In this document: positions 297-8,330 of the stretch, in pieces | Layout: each line of letters opens with the position of its first letter | How positions within the stretch are numbered: the stretch's first letter is position 1 | Origin: a virus | Taxonomy: Duplodnaviria; Heunggongvirae; Uroviricota; Caudoviricetes | Strand: one strand, 5' to 3' | DNA length: 16,393 bases | IMG/VR virus record: IMGVR_UViG_2778261657_000002 | Position numbers and translations under genes: made by a program | Notes under the pieces: model-generated | What the model saw: the letters and a program-made list of their open reading frames with translations, nothing else | Told to the model about the DNA's origin: nothing | Databases searched by the model: none

Positions 297-1337
297 CTAA
301 GCTGTCGCGACATTTTTGCGACATTTTAAGGGGTTAAGTCGCACGGCATCTTCAAGGTGGCTTGGGGCGAAATGGGCATAACGCATTGTCATAGTGATGT
401 CAGCGTGGCCGAGAATTTTTTGCAGAACCAGAATGTTCCCGCCGTTCATCATAAAGTGGCTGGCAAATGTATGGCGCAGTACATGGGTAAGCTGGCCGGA
501 GGGGAGTTCAATGCCTGCGCGTTCCAAAGCAGAGCGGAACGCGTTATAGCAGGGTTTGGGGAACAGAGCGCCTTTCGTTTCAGGCAATTCGGATAGAAGT
601 TCATCATCAAGGGGGATTGTTCTGTTGCGCTTCCCTTTGGTTTTGACGAACGTAACTTTATCGCCTGCGATCTGAGAGCTTTTCAGCGTTGCCGCTTCAT
701 TCCATCTTGCGCCGGTCGCAAGACAGATTTTTACGACTAGCTCCAAGTATTTTACTTTGCTTCGTTTGCATTCCAGCAAAAGCAGCTCAATTTCTTCAGC
801 AGTGAGGAAAGCCATTTCGGTTTCATCAGTACGATACTGTCTGACGTTTTCCAGTGGGTTGGGGGCTGACCATTCCCCGATTCGTTTCAGCTCGTTGAAC
901 ATAGCCAGGAAGTAAGCATGTTCAAGGTTCATTGTTTTCGGGGAAACCTTGGATACTCTGCTAGTGCGGGCATAATGCCCATCAAGCCTTTTTGCGCGGT
1001 AGGCCGTGAACAGCTGGGCATTAAACTCTGTAGCTAGCGGGAATCCCATGCACTCTGCCGCCCAGGTCATAGCGTCTTTGCGCTTTTGACCATTGCGCAA
1101 AGCTACTCCGTGGCGTTCATACCACATTGTGATCAGGTCTATTAAAGTTCGTTTGTCCTTCCCTTCACCCAGCCAGGGCGCACTGTCTACTTTCTGAAGC
1201 GTATGGTTCTCAAATGCCAGGGCTTCCCCCTTCGTGGCAAATTTTTTACGTATGCGCTTCCCGTTCTTACCATTACTACGGTTGACGGTGTAGAAGTCGG
1301 CGATCCATTCGCCTGTCGGAAGTTTACGAACACTCAT
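297..1337 (-). CDS. int: Phage tyrosine integrase (site-specific recombinase)
   Basis: The C-terminal catalytic region carries the tyrosine-recombinase signature LTHVLRHTFASHF...ILGHADITMTMRYAH (R, H-x-x-R and the nucleophile Y). It lies immediately downstream of the cI-like gene, with the cI stop and int ATG arranged as TGAaATG, as in 186. The ORF track starts at a TTG at 1346; I prefer the in-frame ATG at 1337. Confidence 0.93.
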   Translation of the reverse strand: MSVRKLPTGEWIADFYTVNRSNGKNGKRIRKKFATKGEALAFENHTLQKVDSAPWLGEGKDKRTLIDLITMWYERHGVALRNGQKRKDAMTWAAECMGFPLATEFNAQLFTAYRAKRLDGHYARTSRVSKVSPKTMNLEHAYFLAMFNELKRIGEWSAPNPLENVRQYRTDETEMAFLTAEEIELLLLECKRSKVKYLELVVKICLATGARWNEAATLKSSQIAGDKVTFVKTKGKRNRTIPLDDELLSELPETKGALFPKPCYNAFRSALERAGIELPSGQLTHVLRHTFASHFMMNGGNILVLQKILGHADITMTMRYAHFAPSHLEDAVRLNPLKCRKNVATA

Positions 1338-1338
1338 T

Positions 1339-1917
1339 TCATTCAATCGTCAGAACAATGCGGCCGATGATTTTTATATCGTCAATACCGCAGTCAAAAG
1401 CCATACCTACGCCGCTTACTCTAACTTTTCCCACAGGGATGCGTGTTAGTGTTCTAACGCTGGTTTTACCTTCAACTTCGACAAGCCAAACATCGTCATA
1501 AACTTCAGTAAAGTGTTGATCAACAATGTATTGCATTGTGTTATCAATCACACAGATAGGATTCTGCGGTAAAGGTTTGCCAGGTAAAAAAGTAACCTTA
1601 TCGAGCATTAGGAAACCAGACTCATAGAGTTTTCCGTCCACAATCTTCTTGCGTGGCAATTTCATGATGTCTAATTCGTCATCGTTAAACTTTCTACCTT
1701 GTCCAGTCGCAAGCCATTCCAGAGTAGCTCCTGTTTCAGCCATACATCTAACAACGATATCAGCTGGAAAAAAATCCCTCTTATACCGGTTAGCCAGACT
1801 GCTGCTTGCTATATCAAGATGTTCGGCTAGGGCTAGTTTTGTGTTGAATCCATACGCTTGGATAACTCTATCTAGTACCTCAGCTCCGCCATGAGAAAAC
1901 TCAATTTGTAGATTCAC
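1339..1917 (-). CDS. cI: 186-type CI immunity repressor
   Basis: 192 aa, the length I recall for phage 186 CI. N-terminal HTH-like segment (VLDRVIQAYGFNTKLALAEHLDIASSSLANRY). It is transcribed divergently from the apl/cII operon and sits directly upstream of int. The start is a GTG with an AAGG ribosome-binding site about 10 nt upstream. Confidence 0.85.
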   Translation of the reverse strand: MNLQIEFSHGGAEVLDRVIQAYGFNTKLALAEHLDIASSSLANRYKRDFFPADIVVRCMAETGATLEWLATGQGRKFNDDELDIMKLPRKKIVDGKLYESGFLMLDKVTFLPGKPLPQNPICVIDNTMQYIVDQHFTEVYDDVWLVEVEGKTSVRTLTRIPVGKVRVSGVGMAFDCGIDDIKIIGRIVLTIE

Positions 1918-2036
1918 GAAAGTTTTACCTTGAAATCTTGCGCGGAGTGAGTTTAAACTCCGCTTTGTAGGTTTAAGTGAATATTGACAGTTACAGCCCT
2001 GTATTGCCGTACAGGTTAACTTATGGAGTTTGCCTC
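1918..2036. promoter_or_regulatory. Lysis/lysogeny switch region between cI and apl (candidate face-to-face pR/pL promoters and operators)
   Basis: Intergenic region between divergent cI and apl. It contains a consensus -35 hexamer TTGACA (1984..1989, plus strand), an inverted repeat GCGGAG-N10-CTCCGC (1942..1963) enclosing the perfect palindrome GAGTTTAAACTC (1949..1960), and a CTGT-N8-ACAG palindrome (1999..2014). Promoter assignment is inference from 186 biology. Confidence 0.5.
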
Positions 2037-2258
2037 ATGCGTCCGAACATTACAATCATCATCCCAGAGCCATACCTGCCTTTAGACGAGTATTGCCGCC
2101 GTACTGGTACCAACAAAGAAACCGCCAGGAACCTGATCGAATACGGGAAATTACCTATTAAGCCGAAGGGTAAGCAGAAGAAAGGCCTGGTCGAAGTCAA
2201 CATGGCCGCGCTCACTATTCAGGCTTTAAGCGAATGTGACATTTCGCTTAACGCGTAA
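2037..2258 (+). CDS. apl: Apl/Cox-like excisionase and transcriptional regulator
   Basis: Small basic protein (73 aa from the ATG at 2037, with a GGAG ribosome-binding site 8 nt upstream) and first gene of the rightward operon opposite cI, the position of apl in 186 and cox in P2. The ORF track's longer 93-aa version begins at a GTG inside the switch region. Confidence 0.7.
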   Translation: MRPNITIIIPEPYLPLDEYCRRTGTNKETARNLIEYGKLPIKPKGKQKKGLVEVNMAALTIQALSECDISLNA

Positions 2259-3814: not shown

Positions 3815-3881
3815 TTAACAGCCTGAATTTTTTGGCCACGGTTCAAGTGGCCGGGGATTCTTTTGCCTTAAGGAAACCAAA

Positions 3882-5136: not shown

Positions 5137-5986
5137 AACTCCGCTTAAATGGGTGGGCAGCAAAGCCCGCCTTATGCCTAAGCTGCGTCCGCACCTTCCA
5201 GAAGGTAAACGCCTGGTTGAACCGTTCGCAGGTTCCTGCGCCGTCATGATGAATACGGATTATGACGAGTATCTGATCGCAGATGTGAATCCTGATCTGG
5301 TTAATCTTTATAAGGCGATGGCGTATCACACTGATGCGCTGCTGAATGAGCTGGAGATCCTGTTTACTGCCAGTTCGTTAGGTGATGAAGAAAGCCGTGC
5401 CGTTTTCTATTACGCCGTGCGTGATGCTTTCAATCTTTCTGGTGGTAAGGCTGGTTCTGAATCTGTTGAAAATGCTGCGCGTTTCCTGTACCTGAATCGC
5501 CACTGCTTCAATGGCCTGTGCCGGTATAACCGCCGAGGACAGTTCAACGTCCCGTTCGGTAAGTACAAAAAGCCTTATTTCCCCGCTGATGAAATCCGCG
5601 CCTTTGCTGAAAAAGCGAAACGCGCAACGTTCATTACTGCCCACTATTCAGAAACACTCGATTTGGTTCGGGACGGGAATGACGTTGTTTACTGTGATCC
5701 GCCTTATCTGACTGAAAGCGACAATTTCACCGCTTACCATGAGCGCGGTTTTACGCATATGGATCAGGGGAGGCTGGCGCGTAAGTTGCGCCGTCTGGCC
5801 AGAAAAGGTGTGCCGGTTGTGGCCTCTAACGCCGATCTGGAAATGGTTCATTACCTGTACGCCGGATTTGAAGCCGTTCGCGTTAATGCCCCGCGAAGTA
5901 TTGGTGCCGCAGCTACATGCCAAAAGACGGCCGCTGAGTTGATTCTGAAGTCTCCGCTTGATTCCATTGTGGTGGCTTGTGCATGA
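5126..5986 (+). CDS. dam: Dam-family DNA N6-adenine methyltransferase
   Basis: Catalytic DPPY motif (VVYCDPPYL), N-terminal AdoMet-binding region (KWVGSKARL...EPFAGSCAV) and overall length typical of GATC-type Dam methylases. GGAGG ribosome-binding site. The target specificity is not shown by the sequence. Confidence 0.9.
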
Positions 5987-8004
5987 CGCTGGCAATAAAC
6001 GAACAATGCTATGCCGTTGATGCCTGGAGGCGGGAAACATTCGCGCCAGGCACTCCGGCAGACGCGACAATCACAGAACGCCGCCTGTGGGCTGTAAACC
6101 CGCAGGATTATGAATGGCGATCCCGGTACCTGCATGAGATACCCGACTGGTTAGCCGGGTATTTTGGCCGTCGTTACGAAAAGCTTTTTTCTGGCCGTGA
6201 CGGGCGTCGCCGTGCCAATACATTCCTGCGCAAAACAATCGGTGAGAATGTATTGCCACGTCTGCGCAAAGTGGCTGCGCGTTACTCGCTGGCCGCTGAT
6301 GCTGCTGATCTTCCTTTTGGTAAGTCGCTGGAGCGCTTGCCGTCACTAGACCGTCCTGATCTTAAAAAACTGGCTGGCCAGATATCTGGCTGGATTTCCC
6401 AGTCACTTTATGACTTCACCGAACAGTTTGATTCCGGCGCTGACGACGCCAGAGAGCTGCATCGCCGCACCCTGGAATCATACCGCCATCTTTGTGCCTG
6501 TTGCCTGATGCTGAATAACCAGCCGCCGTACTGGGCTGAACATGAGGCCAATGAAGGTCAACTGGAAATGCGTAAGGCGGAATCCGGGATACTGCGCATG
6601 ATGGCGCCGGAATGGTGGTACCTGCGTTTTAAACGTGCTCGTGATACGCAGCGCGAGCACATGGCCATTACGGTGGGACAGGTGCAAAAAGCGGCCAGCG
6701 CTTATGTATCTCGCAAAACACTGGGCGAATGGATAGACCAGAAAAAGCGGAATCTGGAGTTCTTTAAAAAGTTTGATCTGCTGAATGATGAGGGGCTGCG
6801 CATTGCACTGGACAGCATGGTGCACCGCAGCGTTGCAAATCCGGCGATCCGTCGATGTGAACTAATGGTAAGAATGCGAGGGTTCGAAGATATGGCCAAT
6901 GAAGAAGGGCTGGCCGGTGAGTTTTACACTATCACCGCGCCATCACGTTTCCATGCGGTTCACAGCAAAGGGGGCTTTGTATCGCAATGGGATGGAAGTA
7001 CACCGCAGGATACCCAGCGCTATTTATGCGGCGTATGGGCAAAAGCACGCGCAGCGATCTCGCGTGCGGGTATTCATGTATTTGGGTTTCGGGTTGTTGA
7101 GCCTCACCATGACGGGACACCGCACTGGCATATGTTGCTTTTTATGCGTCCGCAGGACGTGGACACGGTGCGCGATATTCTTTGCTATCACGCCAGAATT
7201 ACCGATTCTGAAGAACTGCAATCTGAAAAGGCGCTGAAGGCACGTTTTCATGTTGAAGCTATCGATCCCGCCAAAGGTTCGGCCACGGGCTACATCGCGA
7301 AATACATTTCAAAAAATATTGATGGTTTTGCGCTTGATGGTGAGCAGGACGAAGAAACCGGCGAAAACCTGCGTGATATGGCTAAGTCCGTTTCCGCGTG
7401 GGCTTCACGCTGGCGTATTCGCCAGTTTCAGCAGATTGGTGGTGCGCCGGTAACCGTCTGGCGTGAGCTGCGTCGGTTGCGGGATCAGGTACTGACAGAT
7501 CGCAGAATGGATGCGGTTCTGGCCGCTGCTGATGTCGGGGACTGGGCTGCATATACCCAGGCGCAGGGAGGGGCACTGGTTGCCCGCCGTGATCTGGTTG
7601 TTCGTCTGGCCTATGAAATTACGGAACAGGGCAACGAATACGCGGAGGACGTGCAGCGCGTACAGGGTGTTTATTCTCCTTTGGTTCCTGATTCAGAAGT
7701 TTGCACCCGTCTGGTTAAGTGGCAAAAGGTTGCGAAGTTGGCCGAAGCGCCAGCGGAGGCGGGTTTTTCTGGCGGCAACGCCGCCCCTTGGAGTTCTGTC
7801 AATAACTGTACGGAAGGGGGAACCCGCAGACGGTTAAAACTGGAATTATGCAGTCGGGGTTTTGATGGTTCTGATGAAGAAATAGCGATTCTCCTGCGGG
7901 GTAGTGGTTTGAGATTTGGTCAGGGCGCTCTGATTTACCGCAACGGACGGCTTAAAGAGACTCAAAACGAGCCATTACAGGAGCTGTGGCCGGGGTGGTT
8001 ATAG
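5983..8004 (+). CDS. A: Replication initiation protein gpA (rolling-circle nickase)
   Basis: About 674 aa, with the metal-binding HUH-type motif (TPHWHMLLF) and the paired active-site tyrosines (GYIAKYISK) characteristic of the P2/186 A protein. The start overlaps the dam stop (ATGA). The origin should lie inside this gene but I could not locate it. Confidence 0.9.
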   Translation: MTLAINEQCYAVDAWRRETFAPGTPADATITERRLWAVNPQDYEWRSRYLHEIPDWLAGYFGRRYEKLFSGRDGRRRANTFLRKTIGENVLPRLRKVAARYSLAADAADLPFGKSLERLPSLDRPDLKKLAGQISGWISQSLYDFTEQFDSGADDARELHRRTLESYRHLCACCLMLNNQPPYWAEHEANEGQLEMRKAESGILRMMAPEWWYLRFKRARDTQREHMAITVGQVQKAASAYVSRKTLGEWIDQKKRNLEFFKKFDLLNDEGLRIALDSMVHRSVANPAIRRCELMVRMRGFEDMANEEGLAGEFYTITAPSRFHAVHSKGGFVSQWDGSTPQDTQRYLCGVWAKARAAISRAGIHVFGFRVVEPHHDGTPHWHMLLFMRPQDVDTVRDILCYHARITDSEELQSEKALKARFHVEAIDPAKGSATGYIAKYISKNIDGFALDGEQDEETGENLRDMAKSVSAWASRWRIRQFQQIGGAPVTVWRELRRLRDQVLTDRRMDAVLAAADVGDWAAYTQAQGGALVARRDLVVRLAYEITEQGNEYAEDVQRVQGVYSPLVPDSEVCTRLVKWQKVAKLAEAPAEAGFSGGNAAPWSSVNNCTEGGTRRRLKLELCSRGFDGSDEEIAILLRGSGLRFGQGALIYRNGRLKETQNEPLQELWPGWL

Positions 8005-8081: not shown

Positions 8082-8101
8082 TACTGTATGTATATCCAGT
8101 T
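8082..8101 (+). promoter_or_regulatory. Candidate LexA (SOS) box
   Basis: TACTGTATGTATATCCAGTT matches the E. coli LexA consensus TACTGTATATATATACAGTA at 17 of 20 positions, with CTG-N10-CAG retained. It lies 22 bp upstream of the ATG at 8124. Confidence 0.5.
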
Positions 8102-8123: not shown

Positions 8124-8330
8124 ATGGATCTTTTGGAGGCGTCGGCACAGCTGGAACGCATTGAGTTATTGGCCAAAATTGCCCATATTTACGAAAGTAA
8201 CCAGAGAGAGAAAACAATCGCTTTGGCCTGGATTGGAGAGCTTGCGGGAGAGGTTCGCGAAATGGTAAAAAAGGAAGGGCAACGCCCCCAGAATGGGGGC
8301 ATTTTAGGCGGCGGGGGGCATTTTCAGTAG
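8124..8330 (+). CDS. Small ORF downstream of the LexA box; candidate Tum-like SOS-inducible antirepressor
   Basis: 68-aa ORF (MDLLEASAQLERIELLAKIAHIYESNQREKTIALAWIGELAGEVREMVKK...) with a balanced, helical-looking composition and a GGGGG stretch 5 nt upstream of the ATG. Position after gene A and behind a LexA box parallels tum of phage 186. The function is inferred from context only. Confidence 0.4.
   Translation: MDLLEASAQLERIELLAKIAHIYESNQREKTIALAWIGELAGEVREMVKKEGQRPQNGGILGGGGHFQ
8262..8300 (-). terminator. Candidate intrinsic terminator for the minus-strand late operon
   Basis: On the minus strand, immediately after the ogr stop: GCCCCC-attct-GGGGGC hairpin, then gttGCCCttcc and a TTTTTT run. 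The T-run is not directly adjacent to the main stem, so this is tentative. Confidence 0.35.

Follow-up and report, generated by a model that had tools for sequence, protein, structure and literature searches.

A probable stem-loop kept by compensatory changes around a putative Cox/Apl-type box in the cI/apl switch of a 186-like prophage

What is the palindrome that lies between the repressor gene and the apl gene of a 186-like prophage: an operator, a LexA box or a structure formed in the transcripts that cross it? We addressed this question in the virus record IMGVR_UViG_2778261657_000002, a stretch of 16,393 nucleotides (the window hereafter) that is a P2/186-like (Peduoviridae) prophage integrated beside mntS in E. 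coli, with near-identical prophages in seven complete E. coli genomes. The 119 bp spacer between its cI and apl-position genes contains four distinct inverted repeats that are perfect over arms of 6 bp or more, against about 0.36 in shuffled sequences (P ~0.003; the repeat script counts five, 1942-1963 being listed twice). A previous sequence-only reading had proposed operator-like elements in this spacer, and all of them were found in place when the sequence was read again and searched for repeats. Our analysis suggests that one of these elements, the right palindrome at 1998-2015, is probably a stem-loop maintained by compensatory evolution around a Cox/Apl-type box, best read as forming hairpins in both of the convergent transcripts.

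The right palindrome had been described as CTGT-N8-ACAG at 1999-2014. Its location holds, but the element is really larger, CCTGTA-ttgccg-TACAGG at 1998-2015. To follow it among relatives, switch regions were taken from viral contigs (80 loci), from one genome per species (35 loci) and from metagenomes (80 loci); covariation was scored on an ungapped alignment of 47 distinct sequences, and 115 distinct sequences were available across all sources. The inner five pairs are intact in all 47 aligned sequences, with two to four pair types per position; the pair 28-41, for example, is GC in 21 sequences, UA in 17, AU in 6 and CG in 3. The covariation score was 0.688, compared with 0.248 for column shuffles (0 of 500 reached the observed value) and at most 0.116 for slid partners, and RNAalifold independently predicted the same 6-bp stem. 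Across all sources the stem is present in 103 of the 115 distinct relatives with about 20 different arm sequences, and 593 of the 618 pair cells (96%) are Watson-Crick, the others being 6 G.T, 8 A.C and 11 of other kinds. Arm alleles include CCTGTA, CCGATA, TGGATA, CTGACA, CGTGTA, CCTATA, TGAACT, TGAATG and TGAGTG, among others, with complementary partner arms (CCGATA/TATCGG, CTGACA/TGTCAG, TGGATA/TATCCA, TGAATG/CATTCA), and the 6-nt centre stays ATTGCC-like as the arms change. Such matched changes of the arms indicate selection on the symmetry itself. After the stem come GTTAAC on the plus strand and GCTGTAAC on the minus strand. An intrinsic terminator was considered and rejected, as there is no terminator-like site in 1700-2400 and no U tract after the stem, and a cmscan search of 1850-2150 against Rfam 15 at permissive thresholds returned only a chance snoRNA match.

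The centre of the stem holds the most conserved hexamer of the region, a box that reads ATTGCC in the window (2003-2008, plus strand, alignment columns 31-36) and in 28 of the 47 sequences, with ATTGGC, ATTGAC or ATTACC in the remainder. ATTGCC-like hexamers recur at 10-bp phasing. The first box, ATTGAC (aATATTGAC, which includes TTGACA; 1982-1987, plus strand), lies 20-21 bp before the loop box and is ATTGCC, ATTGAC, ATTAAC or GTTGCC in columns 11-16 of the alignment; a weaker, degenerate box, ACAGCC, lies at 1993 (columns 21-26), 10 bp before the loop box. A further box-like TTTGCC at 2029-2034 is placed between the apl Shine-Dalgarno sequence and the ATG, across the predicted pL -10 (see below). 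Here GGAGTTTGC, at the pL -10/apl spacer, is nearly invariant among relatives, and we attribute the near-invariance of the spacer bases before the apl ATG to the TTTGCC box that sits there. The Apl operators of phage 186 lie between pR and pL as direct repeats of 6 bp with a spacing of 10-11 bp, and binding of Apl requires at least three adjacent sites (PMC7498355). The window likewise has direct repeats about one helical turn apart between face-to-face promoters, the arrangement by which a Cox/Apl array is recognized (PMC7498355), and we infer that its ATTGCC-like boxes are bound by a Cox/Apl-like protein. The distant Klebsiella phage ST13-OXA48phi12.1, whose Apl is 41% identical, has another box, AATAGTG, at these three positions, spaced by 20 and 27 bp; the middle copy occupies the loop of a hairpin of 8 bp, GTGCCTAA-tagtgag-TTAGGCAC, 22 nt before the likely apl start. 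Separately, the loop octamer TATTGCCG of the window has an exact second copy at 2091-2098, in the apl codons E-Y-C-R-R, which is probably conserved through coding although it is a perfect match to the box.

To judge from its genes, the locus is the cI/apl lysis/lysogeny switch of a 186-type phage with face-to-face promoters. The cI gene (1339-1917, minus strand, GTG start) encodes a 186-type immunity repressor of 192 aa that carries both domains of 186 CI (Pfam Phage_CI_repr, 2.5e-25; Phage_CI_C, 6e-31) and is 41% identical to 186 CI over 178 aa, which bears out the earlier assignment of this switch region to the 186 family. The apl-position gene (2037-2258, plus strand) encodes a 73-aa protein that matches PHROG 575, "Cox-like excisionase and repressor" (E = 1.5e-27); compared with 186 Apl itself, no similarity was detectable. 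The annotated record of phage 186 served as the reference layout. There the pR -35 and -10 lie 15 and 38 bp past the cI start, the pL -10 lies 5-10 bp before the apl ATG, the pL -35 lies within apl (+14 to +19), and the Apl operators stand between the two promoters. Scanning 1700-2400 of the window for promoters gave a sole sigma-70-like match, TTGAAA-18-TAAACT, at the position of 186 pR: a predicted -35 at 1930-1935, 13 bp past the cI start, and a predicted -10 at 1954-1959, both on the plus strand. Relatives retain TTGnnn-17/18-TAnnnT at this position and differ in the intervening sequence. On the minus strand, a predicted pL -10, CAAACT (2032 to 2027), and a predicted pL -35, TTGTAA (2055 to 2050, within apl codons 5-7), are spaced 17 bp apart and have the same offsets relative to apl as their 186 counterparts. 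Codons 5-6 of apl read ATT ACA in each of the 81 distinct sequences, although every synonymous alternative is found at the codons nearby, an invariance that is good evidence for a promoter-like DNA signal within the gene at these codons. Transcription would start near 1966-1967 from pR and near 2020 from pL, both of these positions being predictions.

The predicted pR differs from the rightward promoter of the sequence-only reading, which had used TTGACA (1984-1989) as a -35 and expected the -10 at the CTGT element. No usable -10 is found 16-18 bp from this hexamer, the hexamer is not conserved (relatives have TTGCCT, TTGCCC, TTGACT or TTAACT), and the predicted pR lies instead 50 bp further left, across the left palindromes. 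Directly after its -10, where the pR RNA is predicted to begin (1964-1970), a TTGTAG is kept in most relatives with any CI type; in some relatives it belongs to CTACAAA-N8-TTTGTAG surrounding the -35.

The left palindromes are themselves credible candidates for operators at the lytic promoter. The outer one was found at the coordinates first assigned to it, but what had been given as GCGGAG-N10-CTCCGC really has 7-bp arms, GCGGAGT-N8-ACTCCGC (1942-1963); nested in it is the 12-bp palindrome GAGTTTAAACTC at 1949-1960, which is perfect as had been said. The left palindrome covers the spacer and the -10 of TTGAAA-18-TAAACT, an inverted repeat over pR as in 186, where the central CI operator, TATCTCTCAA/TTGGGAGATA, has the equivalent position. 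At the same place heteroimmune relatives carry other palindromes (CCGAATC-N9-GATTCGG, GAAGT-N8-ACTTC, TCTCGA-t-TCGAGA), and phage ESSI2_ev015 has TCGATTAAATCGA as a palindrome there; differences of this kind fit an immunity-specific operator. By their position, the left palindromes are probably the CI operator by which the repressor silences pR. Against this assignment, the outer arm reads GCGGAG, GCAGAG, GCGAAG or GCAAAG where the CI DNA-binding domain is 100% identical, only the core AGTGAGTTTAAACT, which includes the -10 hexamer, is stable, and no further copy of GAGTTTAAACTC with up to two mismatches occurs in the rest of the window. The A-type CI site of 186, ATTCAC-N5-GTGAAT, is absent, with only an isolated GTGAAT (1977) and an isolated ATTCAC (1912). 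In 186 several CI operators stand two helical turns from one another and their motif recurs at distal sites (FL/FR, pB); in the window a TTTAA-centred element at 1974.5 is located 20 bp from the centre of the left palindrome at 1954.5. The promoter region of the late activator (ogr/B) shows no excess of motifs shared with the left palindrome (2 matches, 2.5 expected). At 1944-1945, all four combinations GG, AG, GA and AA are found among phages whose CI DNA-binding domains are 100% identical and whose spacers differ very little, which suggests either recurrent mutation or selection on the strength of an operator or hairpin.

The left palindrome could instead be mainly an RNA hairpin of the cI leader, carried on the minus strand by the pL and pE transcripts, and not a CI operator. 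Its hairpin appears in both the minimum-energy and the centroid folds of the predicted pL leader (leader z = -1.79, not significant), all the variants at 1944/1945 (GG, AG, GA, AA) retain G.U pairing on the minus-strand RNA, and other immunity groups have differing complementary arms around the -10 (CCGAATC/GATTCGG, GAAGT/ACTTC). We nevertheless consider this unlikely: folding of the RNA is expected of every palindromic operator, the relatives L073, L087 and L065 have plus-strand wobbles or plain mismatches in the palindrome, its position is that of the main CI operator of 186, and the core overlaps the -10 hexamer, so that its conservation has more than one possible cause.

Alternatively, the right palindrome might be a DNA operator bound by a helix-turn-helix protein as a dimer, for instance a weak CI site on the pL side or the site of another phage regulator, with the arms as co-evolving half-sites. 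A 6-6-6 bp dyad is a typical operator geometry, and the Watson-Crick symmetry is equal on both strands, as for duplex DNA. In 186, moreover, the stretch over pL that CI protects is about 60-70 bp long and poorly defined in sequence (PMC3675496). The arms, however, do not follow the DNA-binding domain of CI, Apl or CII. Four arm classes are found with CI DNA-binding domains that are 94-96% identical and have an identical helix-turn-helix, the CTGTA arm is shared by CI DNA-binding domains just 54% identical, and different arms occur with Apl proteins 98.6% identical and with CII proteins 100% identical. Tracking of the arms by the CI N-terminal domain, Apl or CII was rejected on the strength of these near-identical proteins with different arms, and residues 26-27 of the Apl recognition helix (NK vs KL) were rejected too, since the same helix is found with several arms. 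The approximately 20 arm alleles have no conserved base in common, which makes a host protein unlikely.

Further evidence comes from a sharp homology break at 1997, one base ahead of the stem. Rightwards of this position (stem-loop, apl and cII) many E. coli prophages match the window at 95-99.7% identity, but to its left they carry an unrelated cI and pR module. The break marks a recombination joint between the immunity module and the apl module, and the stem therefore travels with apl and is joined to unrelated cI/pR modules; the same arms with the same apl module are thus found next to different cI genes and pR operators, against expectation for an operator of CI. The centre of the right dyad is also 54 bp from the left palindrome, off the two-turn register of the 186 CI wheel. 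An operator with the arms as half-sites is, on this evidence, quite improbable. The earlier suggestion of a CI or Apl operator survives in the centre of the palindrome, a Cox/Apl-type box, and fails for the arms, which vary, always in complementary fashion and independently of the regulators, and are not half-sites of LexA, CI or Apl.

With the arms set apart from the regulators, the symmetry of the right palindrome could act at the level of RNA or of DNA structure. According to the predicted promoters the region is transcribed from both sides, and both RNAs would carry the stem. Wobbles are equally rare in both directions among the 115 sequences (6 G.T and 8 A.C cells) and favour neither strand; a bias to the plus strand that was seen in 47 sequences (5:0) was gone with 115 (6 vs 8). 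Near-exclusive Watson-Crick pairing would be expected either from a need for both strands to fold or from a role of the duplex DNA. In a rival reading the dyad would act as a DNA structure, a cruciform or a hairpin of the non-template strand, on promoter function or on Apl binding, for which the Watson-Crick complementarity retained on both strands and the box exactly in the loop in two distant families could be adduced. Arms of 5-8 bp are, however, too short for stable extrusion of a cruciform, and the positive supercoiling that convergent transcription would produce between the promoters should oppose it. We regard a DNA structure as very unlikely and favour hairpins in both convergent transcripts, to which the covariation points.

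That the right palindrome is a LexA (SOS) box placing the switch under direct LexA control is hardly tenable, in spite of its perfect half-sites and spacing (CTGT 1999-2002, ACAG 2011-2014), flanking TA/TA as in the consensus CTGTAT...ATACAG, the third-best match to a LexA matrix in the window and an arm, CTGTA, that is the commonest allele (63 of 100 loci, 30 of 47 distinct sequences). On this matrix, built from 28 known E. coli boxes, the 20-mer 1997-2016 scores 10.4 bits, below every one of the 28 (13.1-26.8 bits; leave-one-out minimum 7.8), and its heterology index of 13.6 exceeds their maximum of 11.9; by chance alone, about 0.5 matches this strong would occur per window. Its centre is GC-rich, it is downstream of both predicted starts and overlaps no promoter, and the score is lost at orthologous positions with other arms (-16 to -31 bits) although the dyad is retained. 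The site is thus sub-threshold. The doubt about direct LexA control that had already been voiced was sound. A canonical LexA box is present elsewhere: TACTGTATGTATATCCAGTT at 8082-8101 scores 26.4 bits, resembles the p95 box of 186 and precedes by 23 bp a Tum-like open reading frame of 68 aa (8124-8330; PHROG 698, function unknown). Over 38 aa the product of this reading frame shares 32% identity with the N-terminal part of Tum, the antirepressor of 186; it is far shorter than Tum, without the DinI-like C-terminal part. Box and reading frame probably constitute an SOS-induction module, and SOS induction would then follow the 186 route. A perfect CTGT-N8-ACAG in a prophage switch is no evidence of LexA control.

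Phage 186 resembles the window in gene order (int-cI / apl-cII-fil), in its CI family, in the offsets of pR and pL from the cI start and the apl ATG, in the direct-repeat boxes between the promoters and in a LexA-controlled Tum-like module after gene A. It differs in having seven Apl operators between the face-to-face promoters, against about three clear boxes in the window, and in boxes that are TGGCAA-like rather than ATTGCC-like. Between pR and pL, 186 also has a perfect 9-bp inverted repeat, GCAATTGAT/ATCAATTGC (23069-23111; shuffle P = 0.005), which encloses two Apl operators and is unannotated in the 186 record. Relatives of 186 show compensatory arms, CAATTAAT/ATTAATTG, CAATCAGT/ATTGATTG and CAGTGAG/CTCACTG, as well as TTCATTGAT/ATCAATGGA with one T.G wobble. 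One pair of this stem is GC in 14 sequences and AU in 10, and the covariation is 0.321 against 0.185 for shuffles (0 of 500), counted on a stem designated by the analyst. The 186 stem has 9-12 bp and a loop of 18-25 nt that holds two boxes, whereas that of the window has 6 bp and a 6-nt loop with one box. Phage P2 has a perfect 8-bp inverted repeat, TTTAGTGC-N10-GCACTAAA (25932-25957; P = 0.002), in the overlap of Pe and Pc, with one end approximately at the Pc start, and a group with Cox 84% identical has instead GTGCTTCT-N42-AGAAGCAC around its repeats; the P2 relatives obtained were too similar for a covariation test. In the literature on the 186 and P2 switches that we searched, and in Rfam, no hairpin or inverted repeat is described between these promoters.

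Several observations weigh against a stem-loop that acts in both transcripts. About 10% of the relatives are without the hairpin, which is small (-7 to -8 kcal/mol) and whose stability compared with shuffles is not significant (z = -1.0 to -1.5). With G.T and A.C cells equally frequent, the symmetry may have a cause at the DNA level. Both promoters and both starts are predictions from homology of position, and the binding of a Cox/Apl-like protein to ATTGCC is putative. The stem of the 186 family is biased to the plus strand (33 G.T vs 7 A.C cells), unlike that of the window family, and RNAalifold did not recover the long-loop stem of the 186 family; the two families may work differently.

In the mechanism that we propose for the right stem-loop, the boxes ATTGAC (1982), ATTGCC (2003) and TTTGCC (2029) would form, at the DNA level, a direct-repeat array for a Cox/Apl-like protein. 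The arms would occupy the spacers around the middle one of these three and would pair in the RNAs that cross the pR-pL overlap. In the cI-int RNA from pL, about 5 nt would separate the hairpin from the predicted 5' end; in the apl leader from pR it would span approximately +32 to +49, 9 nt ahead of the Shine-Dalgarno sequence. The overlapping, complementary 5' leaders would both be structured, with 6-nt loops, UUGCCG and CGGCAA, that are complementary to each other. As the most likely role, which we nevertheless put forward tentatively, these structures would set how stable the leaders are and how sense and antisense RNAs pair in the collision zone. An alternative role would be that of a 5'-proximal stabilizer of the cI-int mRNA; less likely roles are a hairpin at which pR polymerases pause over the pL -10 and an anti-termination signal for polymerases leaving pR.

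Several known systems invite comparison. The sense/antisense stem-loops of convergently transcribed control regions, such as P22 sar/ant and R1 CopA/CopT, resemble the window in that opposite RNAs would be made from the same DNA, each with the same stem and complementary, G+C-rich 6-nt loops, and in the Watson-Crick pairs kept on both strands; a discrete antisense RNA or an effect in trans is purely hypothetical here. Interference between pR and pL in 186 is attributed to polymerase traffic in cis and not to antisense RNA. The stabilizing 5' stem-loops of bacterial mRNAs (ompA type) would be comparable to the window hairpin, which the predicted pL start precedes by about 5 nt, and to the P2 repeat, which begins at the Pc start; as differences, the overhang in 186 would be about 12 nt, and the window hairpin is not 5'-terminal in the pR RNA. 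Lambda nut boxB and HK022 put, small hairpins in early-operon leaders that act on RNA polymerase during elongation, share with the window a short stem with a conserved loop (covarying in the window) in the promoter-proximal early lytic leader before the first gene, and a tR1-like terminator within the operon. The window differs from them in having no N-like protein and no boxA, one hairpin where put has two, and a loop that is a DNA box; the likeness seems to be resemblance only. The tR1-like hairpin, strong and resembling an intrinsic terminator, is located at 3829-3857 (11 pairs, then TTCTTTTG) in the early lytic operon, just before a DUF2732 gene, and the 186 record has at this position the terminator tR1, which it calls anti-terminated.

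The int gene (297-1346, minus strand) lies next to cI; cII (2289-2792) follows apl and is itself followed by a fil-like gene, and replication gene A (5977-8004) precedes ogr/B-like, portal and terminase genes. A palindrome, TAATCC-atcctac-GGATTA, begins at the apl stop codon (2256-2274), a position that in 186 is occupied by the CI site FR and the promoter pE. The fifth arm position of this palindrome is compensatory in relatives (TAATT/AATTA, TAATA/TATTA, TAATC/GATTA, AATCA/TGATT), and the palindrome is unchanged among prophages that differ in CI. Between the att junction and int, five weak box-like octamers, TATAGCCT, TATTGTTT, TATTGATA, TATTAACT and TACTGCCG, are found on the minus strand of 197-293; they score 3.5-8.2 bits and are 17-33 bp apart, all on that strand, against a background of about 1 per 100 bp for a single strand. 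These octamers may be excisionase sites in the int-proximal att arm.

The switches of 186 and P2 are textbook systems for face-to-face promoter interference and models for dual-function excisionase/repressors. The covarying stem-loop described here occurs in more than 100 prophages and is located where the transcripts overlap, and similar repeats are found in 186 and in P2. We would raise, as a decidedly speculative proposal, that P2/186-like (Peduoviridae) switches share an undescribed cis-acting stem-loop around their Cox/Apl boxes, where the face-to-face promoters overlap, which would decide the outcome of convergent transcription. Such an element could act via loop-loop pairing of the two 5' leaders or via a pause at the hairpin, with the lytic polymerase parked over pL. 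It could also make transcription from pR resistant to terminators, and would then account for the anti-termination that the 186 record mentions, or serve as an RNA operator for the Cox/Apl protein itself. If this is true, a switch that has so far been explained by proteins and polymerase traffic alone would gain an RNA (or structural) layer.

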